From positions 1-52,473 of IMG/VR virus record IMGVR_UViG_2541047750_000003: a stretch of 52,473 nt of DNA; one strand, written 5' to 3'. The notes beneath the pieces are model-generated. The model had not been told where the DNA came from. It ran no database searches and worked only from the letters and a program-made list of their open reading frames with translations. A program made the position numbers and the translations under genes. Below are positions 38,245 through 50,357 of the stretch, one piece after another; position 1 is the stretch's first letter; each line of letters begins with the position of its first letter. Origin of the DNA: a virus. Taxonomy: Duplodnaviria; Heunggongvirae; Uroviricota; Caudoviricetes.

Positions 38245-38307
38245 TATACAAAATGGAGTCGTTGTAGCAAAGACATTTTGTATAAAATAGATACACAGAT
38301 CACAAAA
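38245..38307. promoter_or_regulatory. divergent regulatory region with inverted TATACAAAATG/CATTTTGTATA and the 14-mer CACAGATCACAAAA
   Basis: 11-bp inverted repeat arms at 38245-38255 and 38274-38284; 14-mer at 38294-38307 identical to 50344-50357. Confidence 0.5.
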
Positions 38308-38321
38308 GTGGAGTAACAATC

Positions 38322-40535
38322 ATGACAATAAATGTAGGCACGATTGAGTATACCGTTGACGCAAAAACCGAGCGGTTACTCGTAGCTCAACGCAAGGCGG
38401 AAGACTCGTTTGATAAAATCGAGCAAAGCGCTAAACGTACCGATAAATCAGTGCAGTCACTTAACACCACGATAAGTAATTTATCCAAAGCTGTGAACAT
38501 TGGAATGATGCTCATGGCTGCAAAAAAATTCCTGGAGATCGCAGATAACGTGAATCTGCTACGCGCCAGGGTGACGCGGCTATCAAGCGGCATTGCTGAC
38601 GCAAAATCGAATTTTGACGGGATTATTCAGATATCGAATCGCACAGGGATGAGTGTTCAAAGCACCGGGAAGCTGTGGGAAAGCCTAAAGGCCAGCCTGC
38701 AGGATACCAGCGCGACCAGTCAGCAGGTATTGCAGCTTACCGACTCACTCCAAAAAATAGGGCGTATCGGTGGAAGCTCTTCGGATGAAATGTCAAACGC
38801 GTTGCGCCAGTTAGGGCAGTCACTGACTGGCGGCATTGTTCGCGCGGAAGAATACAACTCTGTACTTGAAAATATGCCAGAAGTATGGCGACGCGTCGCT
38901 AAACAAATGGGGATCTCGATGGGTGAACTTCGCGCAAGAATGCTTGATGGTAAGCTCACCGCCGAGGATGTTACTAATTCAATTCTTGCTGGCGCAGAAG
39001 ACATAGAGAAGGATTTCGCAAAGCTGCCAACAACAACAGATCAGGCATTTAACGAGCTAAAAAACAACTTCGATCTGTTAATTGACACGCTAAACCAAAC
39101 GCTTGGAGTGTCTGATTTGGTGGTTACTGGTATACAGGCTGTTTCTAGTGAAGTTCAGATGTTATCCGGTTGGTTTAAGTCCCTGGCGAGCGATAGCACG
39201 TCATTAACTGATAAATTGTGGCTATTGGCTGGGGCGTTTGAGGGTATAGTGCCTGGGCTTAGTTTGTTTCGCGCTCAAGCGAAACAGGTTGGATGGTTTG
39301 ATGGCGGAGAACAGCCATTTGTTTCCACTCTCCCCACGGGGCAAGCTGGTGTAAGTCGCATAACATTTAAGCCTCAACCTGGTGGCAAGGGTAAGAAAGG
39401 CAAAGGTAAAAAATCCGGCAAATCAGAAGCCGAGCGCCTTGCGGAACAGGGTGTGCGCATTTCAGATGCATACAACGAAGATTCAGCAGCAATGCGCAAA
39501 GCGCTTGAATCACAAAAAGCCATAGATGCAGCCTTTAAAGCCGGGAAAATAACCATGCTTGAATACAAAGGTGCAATGAAGGGAATTGGTGATGAATTGC
39601 GCGAAACTCTGGCAGAAATTAACGACCCGATCAATAGGCTGCAAGAAAAATGGGACAAAATGATTCCATCACTGGATCAGAAGCGCGGCGAGCTGGACCC
39701 AATACAGCAGGCGCAAAATGAATGGACCATACGCAAGCAAATGCTGGAAGATCTTGGCGCTACCGAGCAATACATGAAGGAGCAAGAAAGAGCGCACGCA
39801 CAAGAAATGCTCTCCCTTGAATGGGAGCGATATAAAGCACAGTCAATGAGCTACAAACTATTGGGCGATACCGTTGATGCAATGGGAGGATCTGCAACAA
39901 ATGCGCTTGTGGGCCTGGTTAACGGCACTCAAAGTTGGCAGCAGGCGCTGGCTAACATTGGCAATACAATCCTTTCCTCCGTTATCGGTACACTTGTTCA
40001 AATGGGGGCTGAATGGGTTAAACAGCAATTGATCGGTGAGGCCGCCAGCGCAGCCGCAACAGCTAAAGCATTGGCAGAGGCTACCGCTTTGGGATCTGCG
40101 TGGGCCACTCCTGCATACCTGGCAAACGTTGCCACGATGGGCGGAGCGGCGACCGTGGGGGGAACGAGTCTTGCCACTGGTGTGGCTGGGGCTAAGGCGC
40201 TTGGCCTGGCTGGCGCTCGTTATAACGGCGGTGCGGTGGCTGCGGGCAGCCTCTATAAGGTCGGCGAACACGGTAAACCGGAGATCTTTCAGGCGAGCAA
40301 TGGGAGTCAGTACATGATTCCGGGTGACAACGGCAGGGTAATACCAAATCGCGACATTGGCGGTGCTGGTGGTGGTAGCGTTAGTATAAACGCGCCGATT
40401 AGTGTTTACCCCCAAAATGGATGGAGCGATGAGGATGCCAAAAAGCTACAACAGGACATGGAAAGGATCTGCATGGGCCTGATGCACCGCGAATCATCCA
40501 GACCAGGCGGAATGTTGCAACCTCGCAGGAAATAA
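38322..40535 (+). CDS. tail tape measure protein
   Basis: 737 aa; helical/coiled-coil N-terminal two-thirds, Gly/Ala-rich region (GGAATVGG...), position upstream of M-L-K-I-J-like genes. Confidence 0.75.
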   Translation: MTINVGTIEYTVDAKTERLLVAQRKAEDSFDKIEQSAKRTDKSVQSLNTTISNLSKAVNIGMMLMAAKKFLEIADNVNLLRARVTRLSSGIADAKSNFDGIIQISNRTGMSVQSTGKLWESLKASLQDTSATSQQVLQLTDSLQKIGRIGGSSSDEMSNALRQLGQSLTGGIVRAEEYNSVLENMPEVWRRVAKQMGISMGELRARMLDGKLTAEDVTNSILAGAEDIEKDFAKLPTTTDQAFNELKNNFDLLIDTLNQTLGVSDLVVTGIQAVSSEVQMLSGWFKSLASDSTSLTDKLWLLAGAFEGIVPGLSLFRAQAKQVGWFDGGEQPFVSTLPTGQAGVSRITFKPQPGGKGKKGKGKKSGKSEAERLAEQGVRISDAYNEDSAAMRKALESQKAIDAAFKAGKITMLEYKGAMKGIGDELRETLAEINDPINRLQEKWDKMIPSLDQKRGELDPIQQAQNEWTIRKQMLEDLGATEQYMKEQERAHAQEMLSLEWERYKAQSMSYKLLGDTVDAMGGSATNALVGLVNGTQSWQQALANIGNTILSSVIGTLVQMGAEWVKQQLIGEAASAAATAKALAEATALGSAWATPAYLANVATMGGAATVGGTSLATGVAGAKALGLAGARYNGGAVAAGSLYKVGEHGKPEIFQASNGSQYMIPGDNGRVIPNRDIGGAGGGSVSINAPISVYPQNGWSDEDAKKLQQDMERICMGLMHRESSRPGGMLQPRRK

Positions 40536-40676
40536 ACAAAACCCCGGCACAATGCCGGGGCTATTTTCGTATTTATAAACGACCATTTCGCGCGATACAC
40601 ACTCATCCGAAATTACCTGCCAAATATTCCAGATCTCCCGCAAGGTGAATTTATCGTCCTCCATATCCAGCCTCAC
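40494..40676 (-). CDS. questionable small ORF (60 aa)
   Basis: Track ORF overlapping the terminator and the 3-prime end of the tape measure gene; could be the third gene of the minus-strand cassette. Confidence 0.2.
   Translation of the reverse strand: MRLDMEDDKFTLREIWNIWQVISDECVSREMVVYKYENSPGIVPGFCLFPARLQHSAWSG
40542..40574. terminator. intrinsic terminator after tape measure gene
   Basis: ccccggc-acaat-gccgggg followed by T-rich tract. Confidence 0.6.
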
Positions 40677-40927
40677 TTATGCGCACCCTTCACCCCGCAT
40701 AACTTGTTGTAAGCGTGGTGCTCAACAATTAACCACACCTTCAAATCTTCACTGAACAGCCTCCAGTCGAGATTGATATCCATTTTGTAGCCATACCCAT
40801 CGCGTAACTTTTTGGGGCGCACCTCTTTATTTAAAAATGCTTTAAGCAGTTCCTTACCTTTCTTGATAATCCGGTCCTGTGCGTTTTTCTGTACTTTCAG
40901 GTTTTTGTCAATCGCCACCAGTTTCAT
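40673..40927 (-). CDS. RelE/ParE/YoeB-fold toxin-like protein (84 aa)
   Basis: Basic small protein; C-terminal YKMDINLDWRLFSEDLKVWLIVEHHAY resembles the toxin core strands; assignment tentative. Confidence 0.35.
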   Translation of the reverse strand: MKLVAIDKNLKVQKNAQDRIIKKGKELLKAFLNKEVRPKKLRDGYGYKMDINLDWRLFSEDLKVWLIVEHHAYNKLCGVKGAHK

Positions 40928-40944
40928 ATCTCACCCCATCATCC

Positions 40945-49943: not shown

Positions 49944-49948
49944 AAATA

Positions 49949-49974
49949 ACCCCGCTTTGCGCGGGGTTTTCTTT
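49949..49974. terminator. bidirectional terminator after the J-like gene
   Basis: ccccgc-tttgc-gcgggg flanked by A-run and T-run. Confidence 0.6.
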
Positions 49975-50222
49975 TAGTAGTTAGCTACACAATTCGACGG
50001 GCTACCGATGCGGCGCATATTGTGATCTAGTTCATGACACCATTGACCAGTATATGGAAGTTTTTCAGTGTCATAGACAAGATGACCATTAGCATCATAG
50101 ACAATTTCTTGAGGAATTACTCCGCTATTTGGCAGGTTGTGCAATGCAGCATCTTTGTCAACAGCACAACCAGTAAGAGCAACAGCCGCAGCGAATAATA
50201 CCACTTTGAGCATGTTTTTCAT
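49974..50222 (-). CDS. moron lipoprotein (82 aa)
   Basis: MKNMLKVVLFAAAVALTGC: signal peptide with lipobox LTGC; opposite strand, directly downstream of J-like gene. Confidence 0.6.
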   Translation of the reverse strand: MKNMLKVVLFAAAVALTGCAVDKDAALHNLPNSGVIPQEIVYDANGHLVYDTEKLPYTGQWCHELDHNMRRIGSPSNCVANY

Positions 50223-50316
50223 TTTTGAATCCCCATTCTCGTTAGCTCGCCAGGTTCATCCGGTGGCTTAAATATCCGACAAAACAACATTTCGTATATT
50301 GATATAAATCAATAAA

Positions 50317-50357
50317 TACATTTTGTATAAGCCAGAAATGTAACACAGATCACAAAA
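50317..50357. promoter_or_regulatory. divergent regulatory region with TACATTTTGTATA and the 14-mer CACAGATCACAAAA
   Basis: 14-mer 50344-50357 identical to 38294-38307. Confidence 0.5.

Follow-up and report, generated by a model that had tools for sequence, protein, structure and literature searches.

A short control word, Box 1, recurs in nearly all intergenic gaps of the mEpimmI phages of E. coli, and the phage analyzed here, represented by a window of 52,473 nucleotides (positions 1 to 52,473 of IMG/VR record IMGVR_UViG_2541047750_000003), is a member of this coliphage group (mEp021/mEp013). We use the name Box 1 for the 11-mer CATTTTGTATA, with its 9-mer core CATTTTGTA, and the name Box 2 for the 14-mer CACAGATCACAAAA. 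The explanation that we favor as a whole, with a probability of roughly 0.4 and on the evidence of sequence, is that Box 1 represents about 15–20 dispersed operators of the phage repressor Rep, placed on phage promoters, and that Box 2 stands apart from it. Box 1 belongs to a known kind of element but is itself undescribed; no published description of it was found in a literature search, the mEp021 and mEp013 records carry zero annotated promoters, and Rfam covariance models run at the gathering threshold over the whole window gave zero matches.

Box 1 is repeated over the entire genome

A preliminary description of this DNA had treated the element as a feature of the tail region, a restriction that did not hold, as the 9-mer core is spread over the entire genome in 15 copies, compared to 0.6 expected. 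Likewise, seven exact copies of the 11-mer were found where 0.04 were expected, and a Box 1 weight matrix retrieved 22 sites in the whole window compared with 2.9 in shuffles. Around 12 of the 15 core copies lie between genes, the non-coding share of the window being only ~13%, and three are located inside coding sequence. With regard to the 14-mer, its identity at 38294–38307 and 50344–50357, the only exact copies, was confirmed; the pair alone is weak evidence, because about eight exact 14-mer pairs are expected by chance in Markov shuffles of the window.

Box 1 follows the consensus W-T-(C/A)-C-A-T-T-T-T-G-T-A-W-A and takes the form T(A/C)CA-TTT-TGTA(W)A, which is dyad-symmetric only in part; its core form is TACA-TTT-TGTA, and several copies are quasi-palindromes of that form. 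On average, 2.4 of the five outer base pairs are complementary, and in a pseudo-symmetry frame of ~17 bp, six of eight pairs are complementary at promoter H (described below) and three to five of eight at the other sites. Information content is concentrated in the right half, and orientation relative to transcription is mixed (~8 sense, 5 antisense). Box 1 and Box 2 are two separate elements and not the single composite initially proposed: the spacing between them is 20, 23 or 25 nt, and in relatives the 14-mer shrinks to a conserved (G/T)ATCACA plus allele-specific sequence.

Box 1 at early promoters and inside operons

The early promoters predicted on either side of the repressor gene each carry one box. 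In the leftward promoter P_L (7978..8005, minus strand), a -35 TTGATT (8005..8000) is separated by 16 bp from the -10 TAAACT (7983..7978), which is overlapped by Box 1 (7990..7980), and a nutL boxA follows downstream at 7900..7889. The rightward promoter P_R (8823..8864, plus strand) reads TTGACT-17-TATATT (8836–8864), with the Box 1 complement TATACAAAATG (8823–33) set against the -35 and the boxA of nutR1 at 8907. Both flanking boxes, AAGTTTACAAAATGGA at 7977 and AAGTATACAAAATGGA at 8820, are kept in mEp021, and the 16-mer AAGTWTACAAAATGGA is the sole sequence common to the two early promoter regions. A third arrangement (16492..16572, plus strand) comprises, in series, a Box 1 complement (16492–16502), the hairpin of terminator t4 (~16503–16536) and promoter H, in which TTGTTA (16545–50) is followed after 16 bp by TATACT (16567–72) overlapping Box 1 (16560–70), with the boxA of nutR2 downstream at 16588. 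The nut positions found here agree with those published (PMC11893012). Across relatives, the -35 and GTATCCATTTTGTATACT of promoter H are almost invariant while the 16-bp spacer is free to vary in its upstream half, a pattern which indicates a constraint exceeding sigma-70 requirements.

Further copies were located in short gaps. One (1039..1049, minus strand) lies between NinB and a gp03-like gene, where neither the mEp021 record nor PGAP annotates a gene; another (3995..4005, minus strand) overlaps the stop codon of a gp11-like gene, 17 nt before the helicase ATG; the quasi-palindrome TTTACATTTTGTATA (5136..5146, plus strand) occupies a 33-bp gap and coincides with a mosaic breakpoint; and a fourth, also a quasi-palindrome (9502..9512, minus strand), separates the N-like and kil-like genes. 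The copies at 3995, 5136 and 9502 are inside operons, 17–30 nt from start codons, and show no promoter features. Both boxes occur together in the early-right operon (12923..12953, plus strand), where GATCACA, 8 nt and Box 1 (12938–48) are directly followed by TGTGAT.

Box 1 at the tail junctions

Each of the three sites noted previously does lie, as described, with a minus-strand cassette on one side and a plus-strand tail block on the other, and each tail block at these junctions terminates in a bidirectional terminator. A fourth junction of the same kind, overlooked in that description, is situated upstream of the M-like gene at 41269. The suggestion that the elements are promoters or operators named the right class, that of regulatory DNA, because they stand at terminator-to-promoter junctions and overlap promoter-like hexamers predicted on both strands.

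At the tape-measure (TMP) junction, Box 1 (CATTTTGTATA) is present twice. The left copy (38245..38255, minus strand) is just upstream of a -10-like TATAAA (38248..38243), with a -35 TTGCTA (38270..38265) at 16 bp; read on the plus strand, it precedes the rightward promoter's -35 region, and its conservation across 33 unique orthologous sequences is 95% or higher. The right copy (38274..38284, plus strand), which was indeed exact near the 14-mer, as was that at 50319–50329, overlaps the -10 candidates TATAAA (38281–86) and TAAAAT (38283–88) without a usable -35, and the start site of this rightward promoter is predicted at ~38293–38295. Relatives keep CATTTTGTATA.AATAG of the right copy at 95% or more, and two TATAGAAT variants retain TAGAAT in the +2 register.

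The M junction harbors two variants that face each other 68 bp apart, with a small conserved GC hairpin (41217–41234) between them. The first, CATATTGTAAA (41173..41183, plus strand; CCATTTTGTAAACT in relatives), occupies the spacer that leads to TATAAT (41189–41194), a perfect and invariant -10, with TGTGAC (41198–41203) at the predicted start site of the M promoter. The second, CATATTGTATA (41241..41251, minus strand; quasi-palindrome TACATATTGTA), precedes the M-like gene's ATG by 18 nt.

The degenerate copy reported near 43133–43167 was recovered at the L junction as CCATTTTGGTA (43133–43143) and CGCAGATCACAGAA (43157–43170), the latter with two mismatches to the 14-mer. The leftward promoter predicted here for the minus-strand cassette (43103..43143, minus strand) consists of a -35 TTGATC (43131..43126), 17 bp and a -10 TATATT (43108..43103), with a Box 1 complement (43143..43134) against the -35; it is a ~70-nt paralog of P_R, Box 1 included, and its ATCAA plus AATATACATA are at least 95% conserved. 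The cassette carries an antirepressor-like gene and includes a KilAC-like fragment, and its leader contains a degenerate Box 1, CATTTTGTTAA (43072..43082, plus strand), within which GCCATTTTGTT is conserved at 95% or above. On the plus strand, an inserted G in the box (CATTTTGGTA, 43134..43147) creates an extended -10, TGGTATGAT (43139–47), for the L gene, whose TA is kept in only ~70% of relatives.

At the side-fibre junction (50288..50329, plus strand), a Box 1-like CATTTCGTATA (50288–98) is followed by a perfect dyad, ATTGAT-ATAA-ATCAAT (50298–50313), and by an exact Box 1 (50319–29), which is not a -10, because its conservation in relatives is limited to ACATTTTGT. Further downstream (50339..50366, plus strand), a Box 2 dyad runs into an inverted Box 1 core, ACAAAATG (50352–59), and then into an extended -10, TGGTAAAAT (50358–66), where relatives have TGGTAGAAT; this segment is likely the side-fibre promoter, with a start site predicted at ~50373. 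That the plus-strand copies would re-start late transcription of the tail genes, as previously proposed, is plausible; the phage also encodes a Q antiterminator, which could read through the tail-junction terminators anyway.

Box 2 resembles half of a CRP site

Box 2 is an element distinct from Box 1. At the TMP junction (38294..38307, plus strand), its conserved core GATCACA (38298–38304) is a CRP-like half-site, and in relatives the CRP half-consensus AAATGTGATCT is matched 11/11 on the minus strand. The dyad character attributed to TGTGATCTGTG does not extend beyond GATC, but by sequence match Box 2 supplies, at both the L and the side-fibre junction, one arm of a CRP-like dyad of 16 bp and of the TGTGA-N6-TCACA type. 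This dyad reads CGTGAC-GCAG-ATCACA at the L junction (43152..43167, plus strand), with invariant arms and a variable 4-nt centre in 35 unique relatives, and TGTAAC-ACAG-ATCACA at the side-fibre junction (50339–54, plus strand; 14-mer at 50344–57). The TGTGA-N6-TCACA core is matched at 9/10 positions at 43152 and 50339, at 7/10 at 38289 and at 10/10 at 16512, in the stem of terminator t4. Matches to this core with at most one mismatch number four, and all of them fall in regulatory gaps. GATCACA occurs within 60 bp of a Box 1 four times, compared to 0.41 expected. Box 2 centres are positioned at ~-60 to -63 from the predicted leftward starts at the TMP and L junctions and at +3 to +9 from the rightward ones, the values for TMP being ~-60 and ~+3.

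Conservation across relatives and the candidate regulator Rep

A motif search in related phages, which had been recommended, showed conservation of the sites in over 40 relatives, in which Box 1 keeps its positions while the flanks vary. At orthologous sites, Box 1 is conserved at 95% or more, with variable spacers and flanks, and at the tail junctions it is constant next to cassette sequence of 10–15 different flank families. Both this constancy and the presence of the same box at nine early-region intergenic sites, including the two promoters flanking the repressor, speak against the earlier idea that it came in with the morons. Every mEpimmI tail locus contains 2–6 copies (43/43 loci) and early-region loci 3–10, while 35 of 37 outgroup tail loci have zero. 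HNH genes are inserted near Box 1 sites in relatives.

Rep, a lambda-CI-like immunity repressor with HTH_3 and Peptidase_S24 domains (homolog of lambda CI; 3BDN, E 1e-20), is the most likely candidate for the protein that would bind Box 1. It was present in 45/45 loci at 90% identity or higher, and the same comparison gave 29–100% for the Cro-like protein and 45–100% for the Xis-like HTH protein. Of 5426 complete E. coli genomes, exactly 35 have Rep and exactly 35 have the L junction. Box 1 flanks the rep gene at both early promoters, and the antirepressor-like gene of the L-junction cassette is predicted to be driven by the box-bearing P_R paralog. With no heteroimmune relative among the phages compared, the link between Rep and Box 1 is one of co-conservation in one cohesive clade.

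From the motif, its distribution, conservation and register and the co-conservation of Rep, we infer that Box 1 is bound, that Rep is the binder and that the marked promoters work. Some 15–20 dispersed sites would bind this clade-specific regulator, with the tail copies being a sample of the set. Most predicted sigma-70 promoters (P_L, P_R, H and those of the four tail junctions) would have such a site on the DNA contacted by RNA polymerase, and further sites would occupy a few short intra-operon gaps; bound Rep would block the former and act as a roadblock at the latter. In the lysogen, Rep would silence every internal promoter made necessary by terminator and cassette insertions and, once it is inactivated, the plus-strand junction promoters could supplement the Q-dependent late expression of the tail blocks. 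Several features fit Rep less well. CI-type dimers normally use two or three adjacent, clearly symmetric 17-bp operators, whereas a single box with partial symmetry is found per early promoter; the P_R box is upstream of the -35, a position more usual for an activator or UP element; silencing by Rep would extend to cassette promoters for which activity in lysogens is expected, e.g., near the exclusion lipoprotein gene; and there are the three core copies in coding sequence.

Register on promoters and alternative explanations

On the predicted sigma-70 promoters, Box 1 is found against the -10 (-19..-9 at P_L and H), in the spacer (-28..-18 at the M promoter, where TATAAT is invariant) or against the -35 (-47..-37 at P_R and the leftward L-junction promoter). 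A core promoter element of fixed register does not fit, since the distance of Box 1 to the -10 and -35 differs by promoter; an operator fits better, because of this variable register and of the copies in promoter-less intra-operon gaps. Most boxes have TAWAnT at their end or are followed by a separate -10 (41189, 43139, 50358), in agreement with TAnnnT; the T at -7 is often missing after Box 1, as in the TATAAR class. A good -35 at 16–18 bp accompanies P_L, H, P_R and the leftward TMP and L promoters, and none accompanies the rightward TMP promoter, the 50319 copy and the intra-operon copies.

It is possible, albeit doubtful, that Box 1 is no more than an extended sigma-70 consensus peculiar to the family, without a dedicated binding protein, in which a T-rich spacer end and -10 on one strand would double as an A-tract resembling a proximal UP subsite for the divergent partner, and the tail copies would be constitutive or weak promoters for re-initiation and for the cassettes. 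The invariant TA at box positions 8–9, continued into TAnAnT-like hexamers in most copies, the 16-bp spacing to the -35 at P_L, H and the leftward TMP promoter, the nut sites just downstream of P_L, P_R and H, and the start of plus-strand tail blocks right after bidirectional terminators are all in line with this, as is the predicted start-to-start spacing of 57–58 bp shared by three divergent pairs, which implies that a single box is shared between the -10 of one promoter and the -40s of its partner. However, sigma-70 does not require CATTTTG, which is more conserved than the -10 positions, nor does a core consensus accommodate the shifted registers at M and P_R, the absent -7 T of the TATAAR class, the promoter-less copies at 3995, 5136 and 9502, or the loss of the 3' TA at the side-fibre junction.

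Unlikely, too, is that host physiology governs cassette and tail expression through Box 2 as a genuine CRP-cAMP site and Box 1 as a site for an E. coli nucleoid or regulatory protein. The 9/10 dyads, the perfect half-site of the relatives and the leftward Box 2 centres, close to the class I position of CRP-dependent promoters (-61.5), favor it; nevertheless, the only perfect core is a terminator stem, TMP has one half only, the rightward positions (+3 to +9 or ~-26) are non-activating, and Box 1 is missing from outgroup phages of the same host. To our knowledge, judged by eye, Box 1 shows no consistent fit to the consensuses of IHF, Fis, LexA, OmpR, PhoP, Lrp or DnaA. We consider it very unlikely that the boxes mark a promoter class dependent on an activator or alternative sigma factor from an unrecognised phage protein, comparable to the phiEco32 gp36 single-element promoters (tAATGTAtA) or P1 Lpa-dependent late promoters. 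Box 1 shares TGTATA with the phiEco32 consensus (PMC8948821) and most copies lack a -35, but a Pfam scan of 50 ORFs detected neither a sigma-like domain nor that of another activator, a phage sigma factor is absent from the mEp021 and PGAP annotations, P_L and P_R must fire on host polymerase alone, and the register varies, with some copies inside operons. Chances are slimmer still that the boxes are recombination linkers or landing pads for the exchange of modules, morons or HNH genes with no expression role: several do fall exactly at mosaic breakpoints (e.g., 5136), the TMP allele boundary comes just after GATCACA, and HNH insertions are found near box sites in relatives, yet 11–14 bp of identity is short for homologous exchange, 15 scattered copies, oriented either way, would invite deletions and inversions, and strong purifying selection with consistent promoter-hexamer overlap argues for expression. 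Least probable is an mRNA leader or translation signal formed by the complement UAUACAAAAUG just upstream of ribosome-binding sites, for which the sense ACAAAATG 13–45 nt before the starts of six genes (gp11-like, kil-like, M, L, side-fibre and approximately TMP) could be cited; the opposite orientation is equally frequent, no Rfam match or conserved hairpin was found, and the P_L and H copies would not be transcribed, because they are upstream of the predicted start sites.

Relation to known systems

The stoperators of cluster A mycobacteriophages (L5 gp71), one short repressor site repeated more than 15–20 times genome-wide (PMC9283540), resemble Box 1 in having many copies both on promoters and in short intra-operon gaps. 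They differ in being strictly asymmetric 13-mers whose orientation follows transcription, while Box 1 is a partial dyad in mixed orientation, and in their monomeric two-domain repressor (L5 gp71 type), the candidate here being of the lambda-CI/LexA type with putative binding. As at lambda O_L/O_R, a CI homolog is encoded between two boxed early promoters, and promoter H has the 17-bp frame with odd centre (GTATCCAT-T-TTGTATAC); in lambda, however, each promoter has its own three adjacent, clearly pseudo-symmetric operators and the rest of the genome lacks them, whereas here a single box stands at each early promoter and some dozen others are dispersed over the genome. In the temperate phage phiC31, conserved inverted repeats provide a 17-bp repressor site at many dispersed early promoters, although the host is a different one, the sequence is unrelated and those inverted repeats are clear. 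Box 2 matches AGATCACA of the CRP-cAMP site (AAATGTGATCTAGATCACATTT), with conserved arms and a variable centre as a likeness of sequence, in contrast to CRP sites in its half-site at TMP and its non-activating rightward positions. The phiEco32 gp36 promoters have a ~9-bp element without -35 and starts 6–8 bp downstream (PMC8948821); they share TGTATA with Box 1 but need a phage sigma factor, none being found here, and the distance from box to -10 is not fixed in this phage.

A site of the Lrp/AsnC (FFRP) form abcdeWWWe'd'c'b'a' was considered and rejected, as ATACATTTTGTAT has the right form but the candidate protein does not. This 185-aa protein, named Lrp/AsnC by PGAP, consists of tandem winged helices and lacks a RAM domain, and the same box accompanies both of its N-terminal variants, which share 36% identity.

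Morons are cassettes with their own promoter and terminator between late genes of lambdoid phages. The minus-strand cassettes of the tail operon are likewise bounded by bidirectional terminators and promoter-like sequences; unlike in morons, the promoter-side box belongs to the phage backbone, is common to the early region and is unchanged when the cassette differs.

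Box 1 Is a Conserved, Mostly Intergenic Word of the Phage Backbone

ORF and terminator scans showed that the tail genes form four plus-strand blocks, each closed by a bidirectional terminator (37541-58, 40540-62, 41824-44 and 49948-68), and that each block gives way to a minus-strand cassette, beyond which lies a divergent gap. These gaps, the tail junctions, precede the tape measure (TMP), M-like, L and side-fibre genes. The preliminary description had placed a shared two-part element between minus-strand cassettes and plus-strand tail genes, and the three sites do occupy three of the four gaps. 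The 14-mer CACAGATCACAAAA (Box 2) was recovered exactly at 38294-38307 and 50344-50357, with CGCAGATCACAGAA at 43157-43170 as the nearest other copy, while its companion, the AT-rich 11-mer CATTTTGTATA (Box 1), was found exactly at 38274 and 50319 and as CCATTTTGGTA at 43133. Variant boxes, which had been overlooked, are present in the remaining gap, the one that precedes the M-like gene at 41269.

Since about eight identical 14-mer pairs were also obtained in Markov shuffles of the window, such a pair is weak evidence by itself, and the significance of the element rests on the 11-mer and on its conservation. Seven exact copies of CATTTTGTATA were present in the window (0.04 expected), and its core CATTTTGTA, the most over-represented AT-rich word of the window, occurred 15 times against an expectation of 0.6. 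Approximately 12 of these 15 copies are intergenic, vs. the roughly 13% of the window that is non-coding. A weight matrix built from 15 sites gave 22 hits, compared with 2.9 in shuffles. A strong box-like site at the start codon of the major capsid gene (33406-33416) was not conserved in relatives, and was therefore put down to chance or to likeness with a ribosome-binding site.

In its tail region, the window shares 86-91% identity with Escherichia phages mEp013, mEp515, mEp010, mEp044, mEp554, MagusPhagus and mEp021, which constitute the mEpimmI group, reportedly as common as lambdoid phages in human-gut E. coli (PMC11893012). The paper on this group reports five terminators, a CI-like repressor (Rep) and an antiterminator resembling N that has three nut sites; it describes neither promoters nor operators nor the Box 1 motif, and is the only publication on these phages within the literature searched (PMC11893012).

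The motif search in relatives proposed in the preliminary description retrieved the core two to six times in each of 43 related tail loci. It was also present 3-10 times in each related early-region locus, and was absent from 35 of 37 outgroup tail loci, in which the L protein is about 70% identical. Box 1 is at least 95% conserved at each orthologous position, with variable flanks and spacers. The exact composite pattern was found in only 3 IMG/VR contigs, because the 14-mer varies between alleles. The tail-junction boxes persist beside 10-15 different distal flank families and the same word recurs at nine early-region intergenic sites; Box 1 is thus part of the phage backbone and not of the cassettes, contrary to the earlier suggestion that it arrived with the morons. 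We conclude that Box 1 is a real regulatory word, not described before, in a phage family that was defined only recently, and that it belongs to a known kind, the operator or promoter boxes that recur in phage genomes.

Box 1 Overlies Predicted Promoters in Several Registers

The extended consensus of Box 1 is W-T-(C/A)-C-A-T-T-T-T-G-T-A-W-A. The copies at 5136, 9502, 12938, 41241, 43105-19 and 50319 are quasi-palindromic, of the form (A)TACA-TTT-TGTA(T), which is why orientation seemed arbitrary.

On promoter-like sequence, the box was found in several registers. Both in P_L, the predicted early leftward promoter (TTGATT, 16 bp, TAAACT), and in H, a predicted internal promoter after terminator t4 (TTGTTA, 16 bp, TATACT), it lies directly against the -10 element, with the boxA of nutL and of nutR2, respectively, shortly downstream; these nut positions agree with those published (PMC11893012). 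In a 17-bp frame, the copy at H reads GTATCCAT-T-TTGTATAC, with 6 of 8 pairs complementary. At P_R, the predicted early rightward promoter (TTGACT-17-TATATT) and the best sigma-70 match of the immunity region, the complement of Box 1 abuts the -35 element instead, as it does at the predicted leftward promoter of the L junction (TTGATC-17-TATATT). The latter (43072-43155, minus strand) is a paralog of P_R (8812-8895, plus strand) over about 70 nt, the two sharing CAAAATGGATTGAYY, the spacer GTTTT(T)AC, TATATT, TCAAA(C)GGAAG and, downstream, TAACAAAA, and the cassette that it would drive includes an antirepressor-like fragment of the KilAC type (42269-42517). The M-junction box occupies the spacer, and a perfect, invariant TATAAT follows it after 5 bp. 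At the side-fibre junction, ACATTTTGT is the sole conserved part of the copy at 50319, and the conserved predicted promoter has an extended -10, TGGTA(A/G)AAT, at 50358-66, directly after the inverted box core ACAAAATG. In three divergent pairs, those at the TMP junction, at the L junction and at P_R, which has a leftward partner, the predicted start sites are 57-58 bp apart, and in each of them the box found at the -10 of one promoter falls in the -40s of the opposing one. The copies at 3995, 5136 and 9502 lie in intra-operon gaps of 18-33 bp without promoter features.

A core promoter element requires a fixed register, and this possibility was rejected because the position of the box varies. 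Reading TTGTAT/TTGTAA as a -35 element likewise failed, as manual inspection of P_L, H and the TMP junction found no -10 at 16-18 bp. Furthermore, conservation is stronger in CATTTTG than at the -7 T, and at H it extends to positions that sigma-70 leaves unconstrained. The variable register, together with conservation beyond the needs of sigma-70, therefore favours an operator, and the simplest reading of these sequences is that Box 1 is a candidate protein-binding site over DNA contacted by RNA polymerase. The promoters of phiEco32 gp36 (tAATGTAtA) resemble Box 1; this likeness remains a resemblance only, because a Pfam search of 50 ORFs found no phage sigma factor that could read the box. 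As to other roles, an RNA element found no match in Rfam, and a function in Q loading (qut) was rejected because no box lies between the Q gene and the lysis genes. Box 1 also maps likely promoters on both strands, with start sites predicted at 7971, 8814, 38236, about 41232 and 43096 on the minus strand and at 8871, 16579, 38293-95, 41201, 43154 and 50373 on the plus strand. It would be ordinary, if still useful for annotation, were it a promoter consensus only.

Two further structures were observed at the junctions. The two boxes of the M junction, which face each other, enclose a small GC hairpin (TTCGCG-tagaag-CGCGTA, 41215-41236) that is at least 95% conserved and lacks a T-run on both strands. 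A perfect dyad (ATTGAT-ATAA-ATCAAT, 50298-50313) lies between two box copies ahead of the side-fibre gene; its form, TTGAT-N4-ATCAA, is FNR-site-like, and the ATCAA arm is conserved in relatives.

Rep Is the Favoured Candidate Binder of Box 1

Few DNA-binding proteins were identified by Pfam among the 50 ORFs scanned, namely Rep (HTH_3 and Peptidase_S24) and the Q antiterminator, while the Cro-like and Xis-like proteins gave weak NCBIfam matches only. Rep is favoured as the binder of the dispersed boxes because it is a homolog of lambda CI, because none of the 45 early-region loci lacks it (at least 90% identity), because the 16-mer AAGTWTACAAAATGGA, which corresponds to Box 1, is the sole sequence common to the two early promoter regions flanking rep, and because, of 5426 complete E. 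coli genomes, exactly 35 carry Rep and exactly 35 carry the L junction. Against this, each early promoter has just one box, which is only partly symmetric, and the P_R box lies upstream of the -35 element. The clade is highly cohesive and the link between Rep and the box was seen within it alone: a search for heteroimmune relatives, which would reveal whether repressor and box co-vary, found none, all full-length IMG/VR contigs carrying the same Rep, and loci with a Rep only 38% identical had no comparable repeated word.

Other proteins fared less well. The Cro-like and Xis-like HTH proteins range from 29 to 100% and from 45 to 100% identity across the early-region loci, too variable for an invariant box. 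As for host regulators, the consensus sites of IHF, Fis, LexA, OmpR, PhoP, DnaA and E. coli Lrp were compared by eye, and none fits across sites. Members of the Lrp/AsnC (FFRP) family bind sites of a 13-bp form that Box 1 shares, and a 185-aa protein (1919-2476, minus strand), encoded next to the helicase gene, is named 'Lrp/AsnC family' by PGAP. This protein had no Pfam or NCBIfam match, its match to FL11 among PDB sequences reached only E ~1, and its AlphaFold model (pLDDT 77.6) is a tandem winged helix without a ligand domain; the fold thus does not support the PGAP label. Moreover, the boxes do not differ between its two N-terminal forms, which share only 36% identity; its C-terminal 30 residues (LNEYRKNNGLLPDKPVFEIEKLNGETGLEL) are invariant. 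The protein was consequently rejected as the binder.

Bound to the boxes, Rep would silence P_L, P_R, H and the junction promoters, as well as the P_R-like promoter of the antirepressor-like cassette. Promoter H, which reads into the nin/Q region, must stay off in the lysogen, and the intra-operon boxes would serve as Rep roadblocks. In its logic, the closest known system is the operator/stoperator network of cluster A mycobacteriophages, two defining traits of which, an orientation that follows transcription and a monomeric two-domain repressor, are missing for Box 1. The lambda operators are alike in protein family and in flanking the repressor gene, and unlike in number and arrangement. It is possible, with a probability that we put at roughly 0.3, that a coliphage repressor of the lambda CI type controls some 15-20 dispersed single sites and not two operator clusters, in a stoperator-like silencing network of independent origin. 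Sites would then lie on every internal promoter and in intra-operon gaps.

If so, such a network would let the phage tolerate terminator-bounded cassettes throughout its late operon, would explain how this operon stays silent despite four or five terminator-bounded blocks split by opposite-strand cassettes, and would extend the stoperator idea beyond mycobacteriophages. Box 1 is a concrete candidate immunity operator, and pRep021, the plasmid carrying the mEp021 repressor, is an existing reagent for the Rep prediction.

Box 2 Resembles a CRP Half-Site

Across relatives, only (G/T)ATCACA of Box 2 is conserved; its AAAA tail goes with the TMP allele of the window, most relatives having ATCACATTTT. 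The L-junction site reads CGTGAY-NNNN-GATCACA, with invariant arms and a freely variable centre, and the side-fibre site TGYAAC-NNNN-GATCACA. The 'dyad-like' character first ascribed to the 14-mer thus applies only in the sense that, at two sites, the L and side-fibre junctions, the 14-mer makes up one arm of a larger dyad. Both the L and side-fibre sites match the CRP core TGTGA-N6-TCACA at 9 of 10 positions. All four matches to this core with at most one mismatch in the window fall in regulatory gaps, and GATCACA was found within 60 bp of a box four times (0.41 expected). The centre of Box 2 falls at about +3 to +9 relative to the predicted rightward promoters, for which it could be an operator, and at about -60 to -63 relative to the leftward ones, for which a class-I-like activator site would be the alternative.

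The one perfect CRP core of the window, at 16512, is the stem of terminator t4, GGCGTCATTGYGTGAT-N4-RTCACATAATGGCGC, with a variable tetraloop and a subsequent T-run, and was therefore not counted as a protein site. This TGTGA..TCACA stem belongs to a compact module (16487-16650) in which the methyltransferase stop codon, a Box 1 complement, the t4 hairpin, promoter H, the nutR2 boxA TGCTCTTTAAAAA and a NinF-like gene follow each other, an arrangement that amounts to a terminator immediately followed by a re-initiation promoter and the nut site coupled to it. A further CRP-like site (TGTGAC-TTGC-ATCAAA, 8024-8039; 9 of 10 positions) lies in the interval from P_L to the start codon of rep. This site, which is also conserved in mEp021, overlaps TTGCAT, a possible -35 element for the promoter of the repressor gene itself.

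Other Features of the Window

Several genes deserve mention in their own right. An early gene for a 307-aa protein (5148-6071, minus strand) contains long exact internal direct repeats (e.g., 5552-5593 with 5753 onward, and 5617-5631 with 5818 onward); it occupies the place of mEp021 gp12 and, since only 13 of the 45 related loci possess it, is a variable module. A 40-aa ORF (9534-9656, plus strand) that directly follows the N-like gene is 90-97% conserved across the group and weakly resembles lambda Kil (E 2e-4, which does not reach the Pfam cut-off). An HNH_3 endonuclease domain is fused to RusA in a single ORF (17442-18335, plus strand) in 1 of 45 related loci, RusA standing alone elsewhere. 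In an E. coli M15 prophage, the gene at the portal position (30297-31667, equivalent to 29438-30808 of the window) is named 'anti-CBASS protein Acb1 family protein' by PGAP, in conflict with the mEp021 record, where it is a portal protein. Lastly, between the tape-measure and M-like genes (40673-41100, minus strand), a ParE-like toxin of 84 aa and a 51-aa ORF upstream of it probably form a toxin-antitoxin pair.
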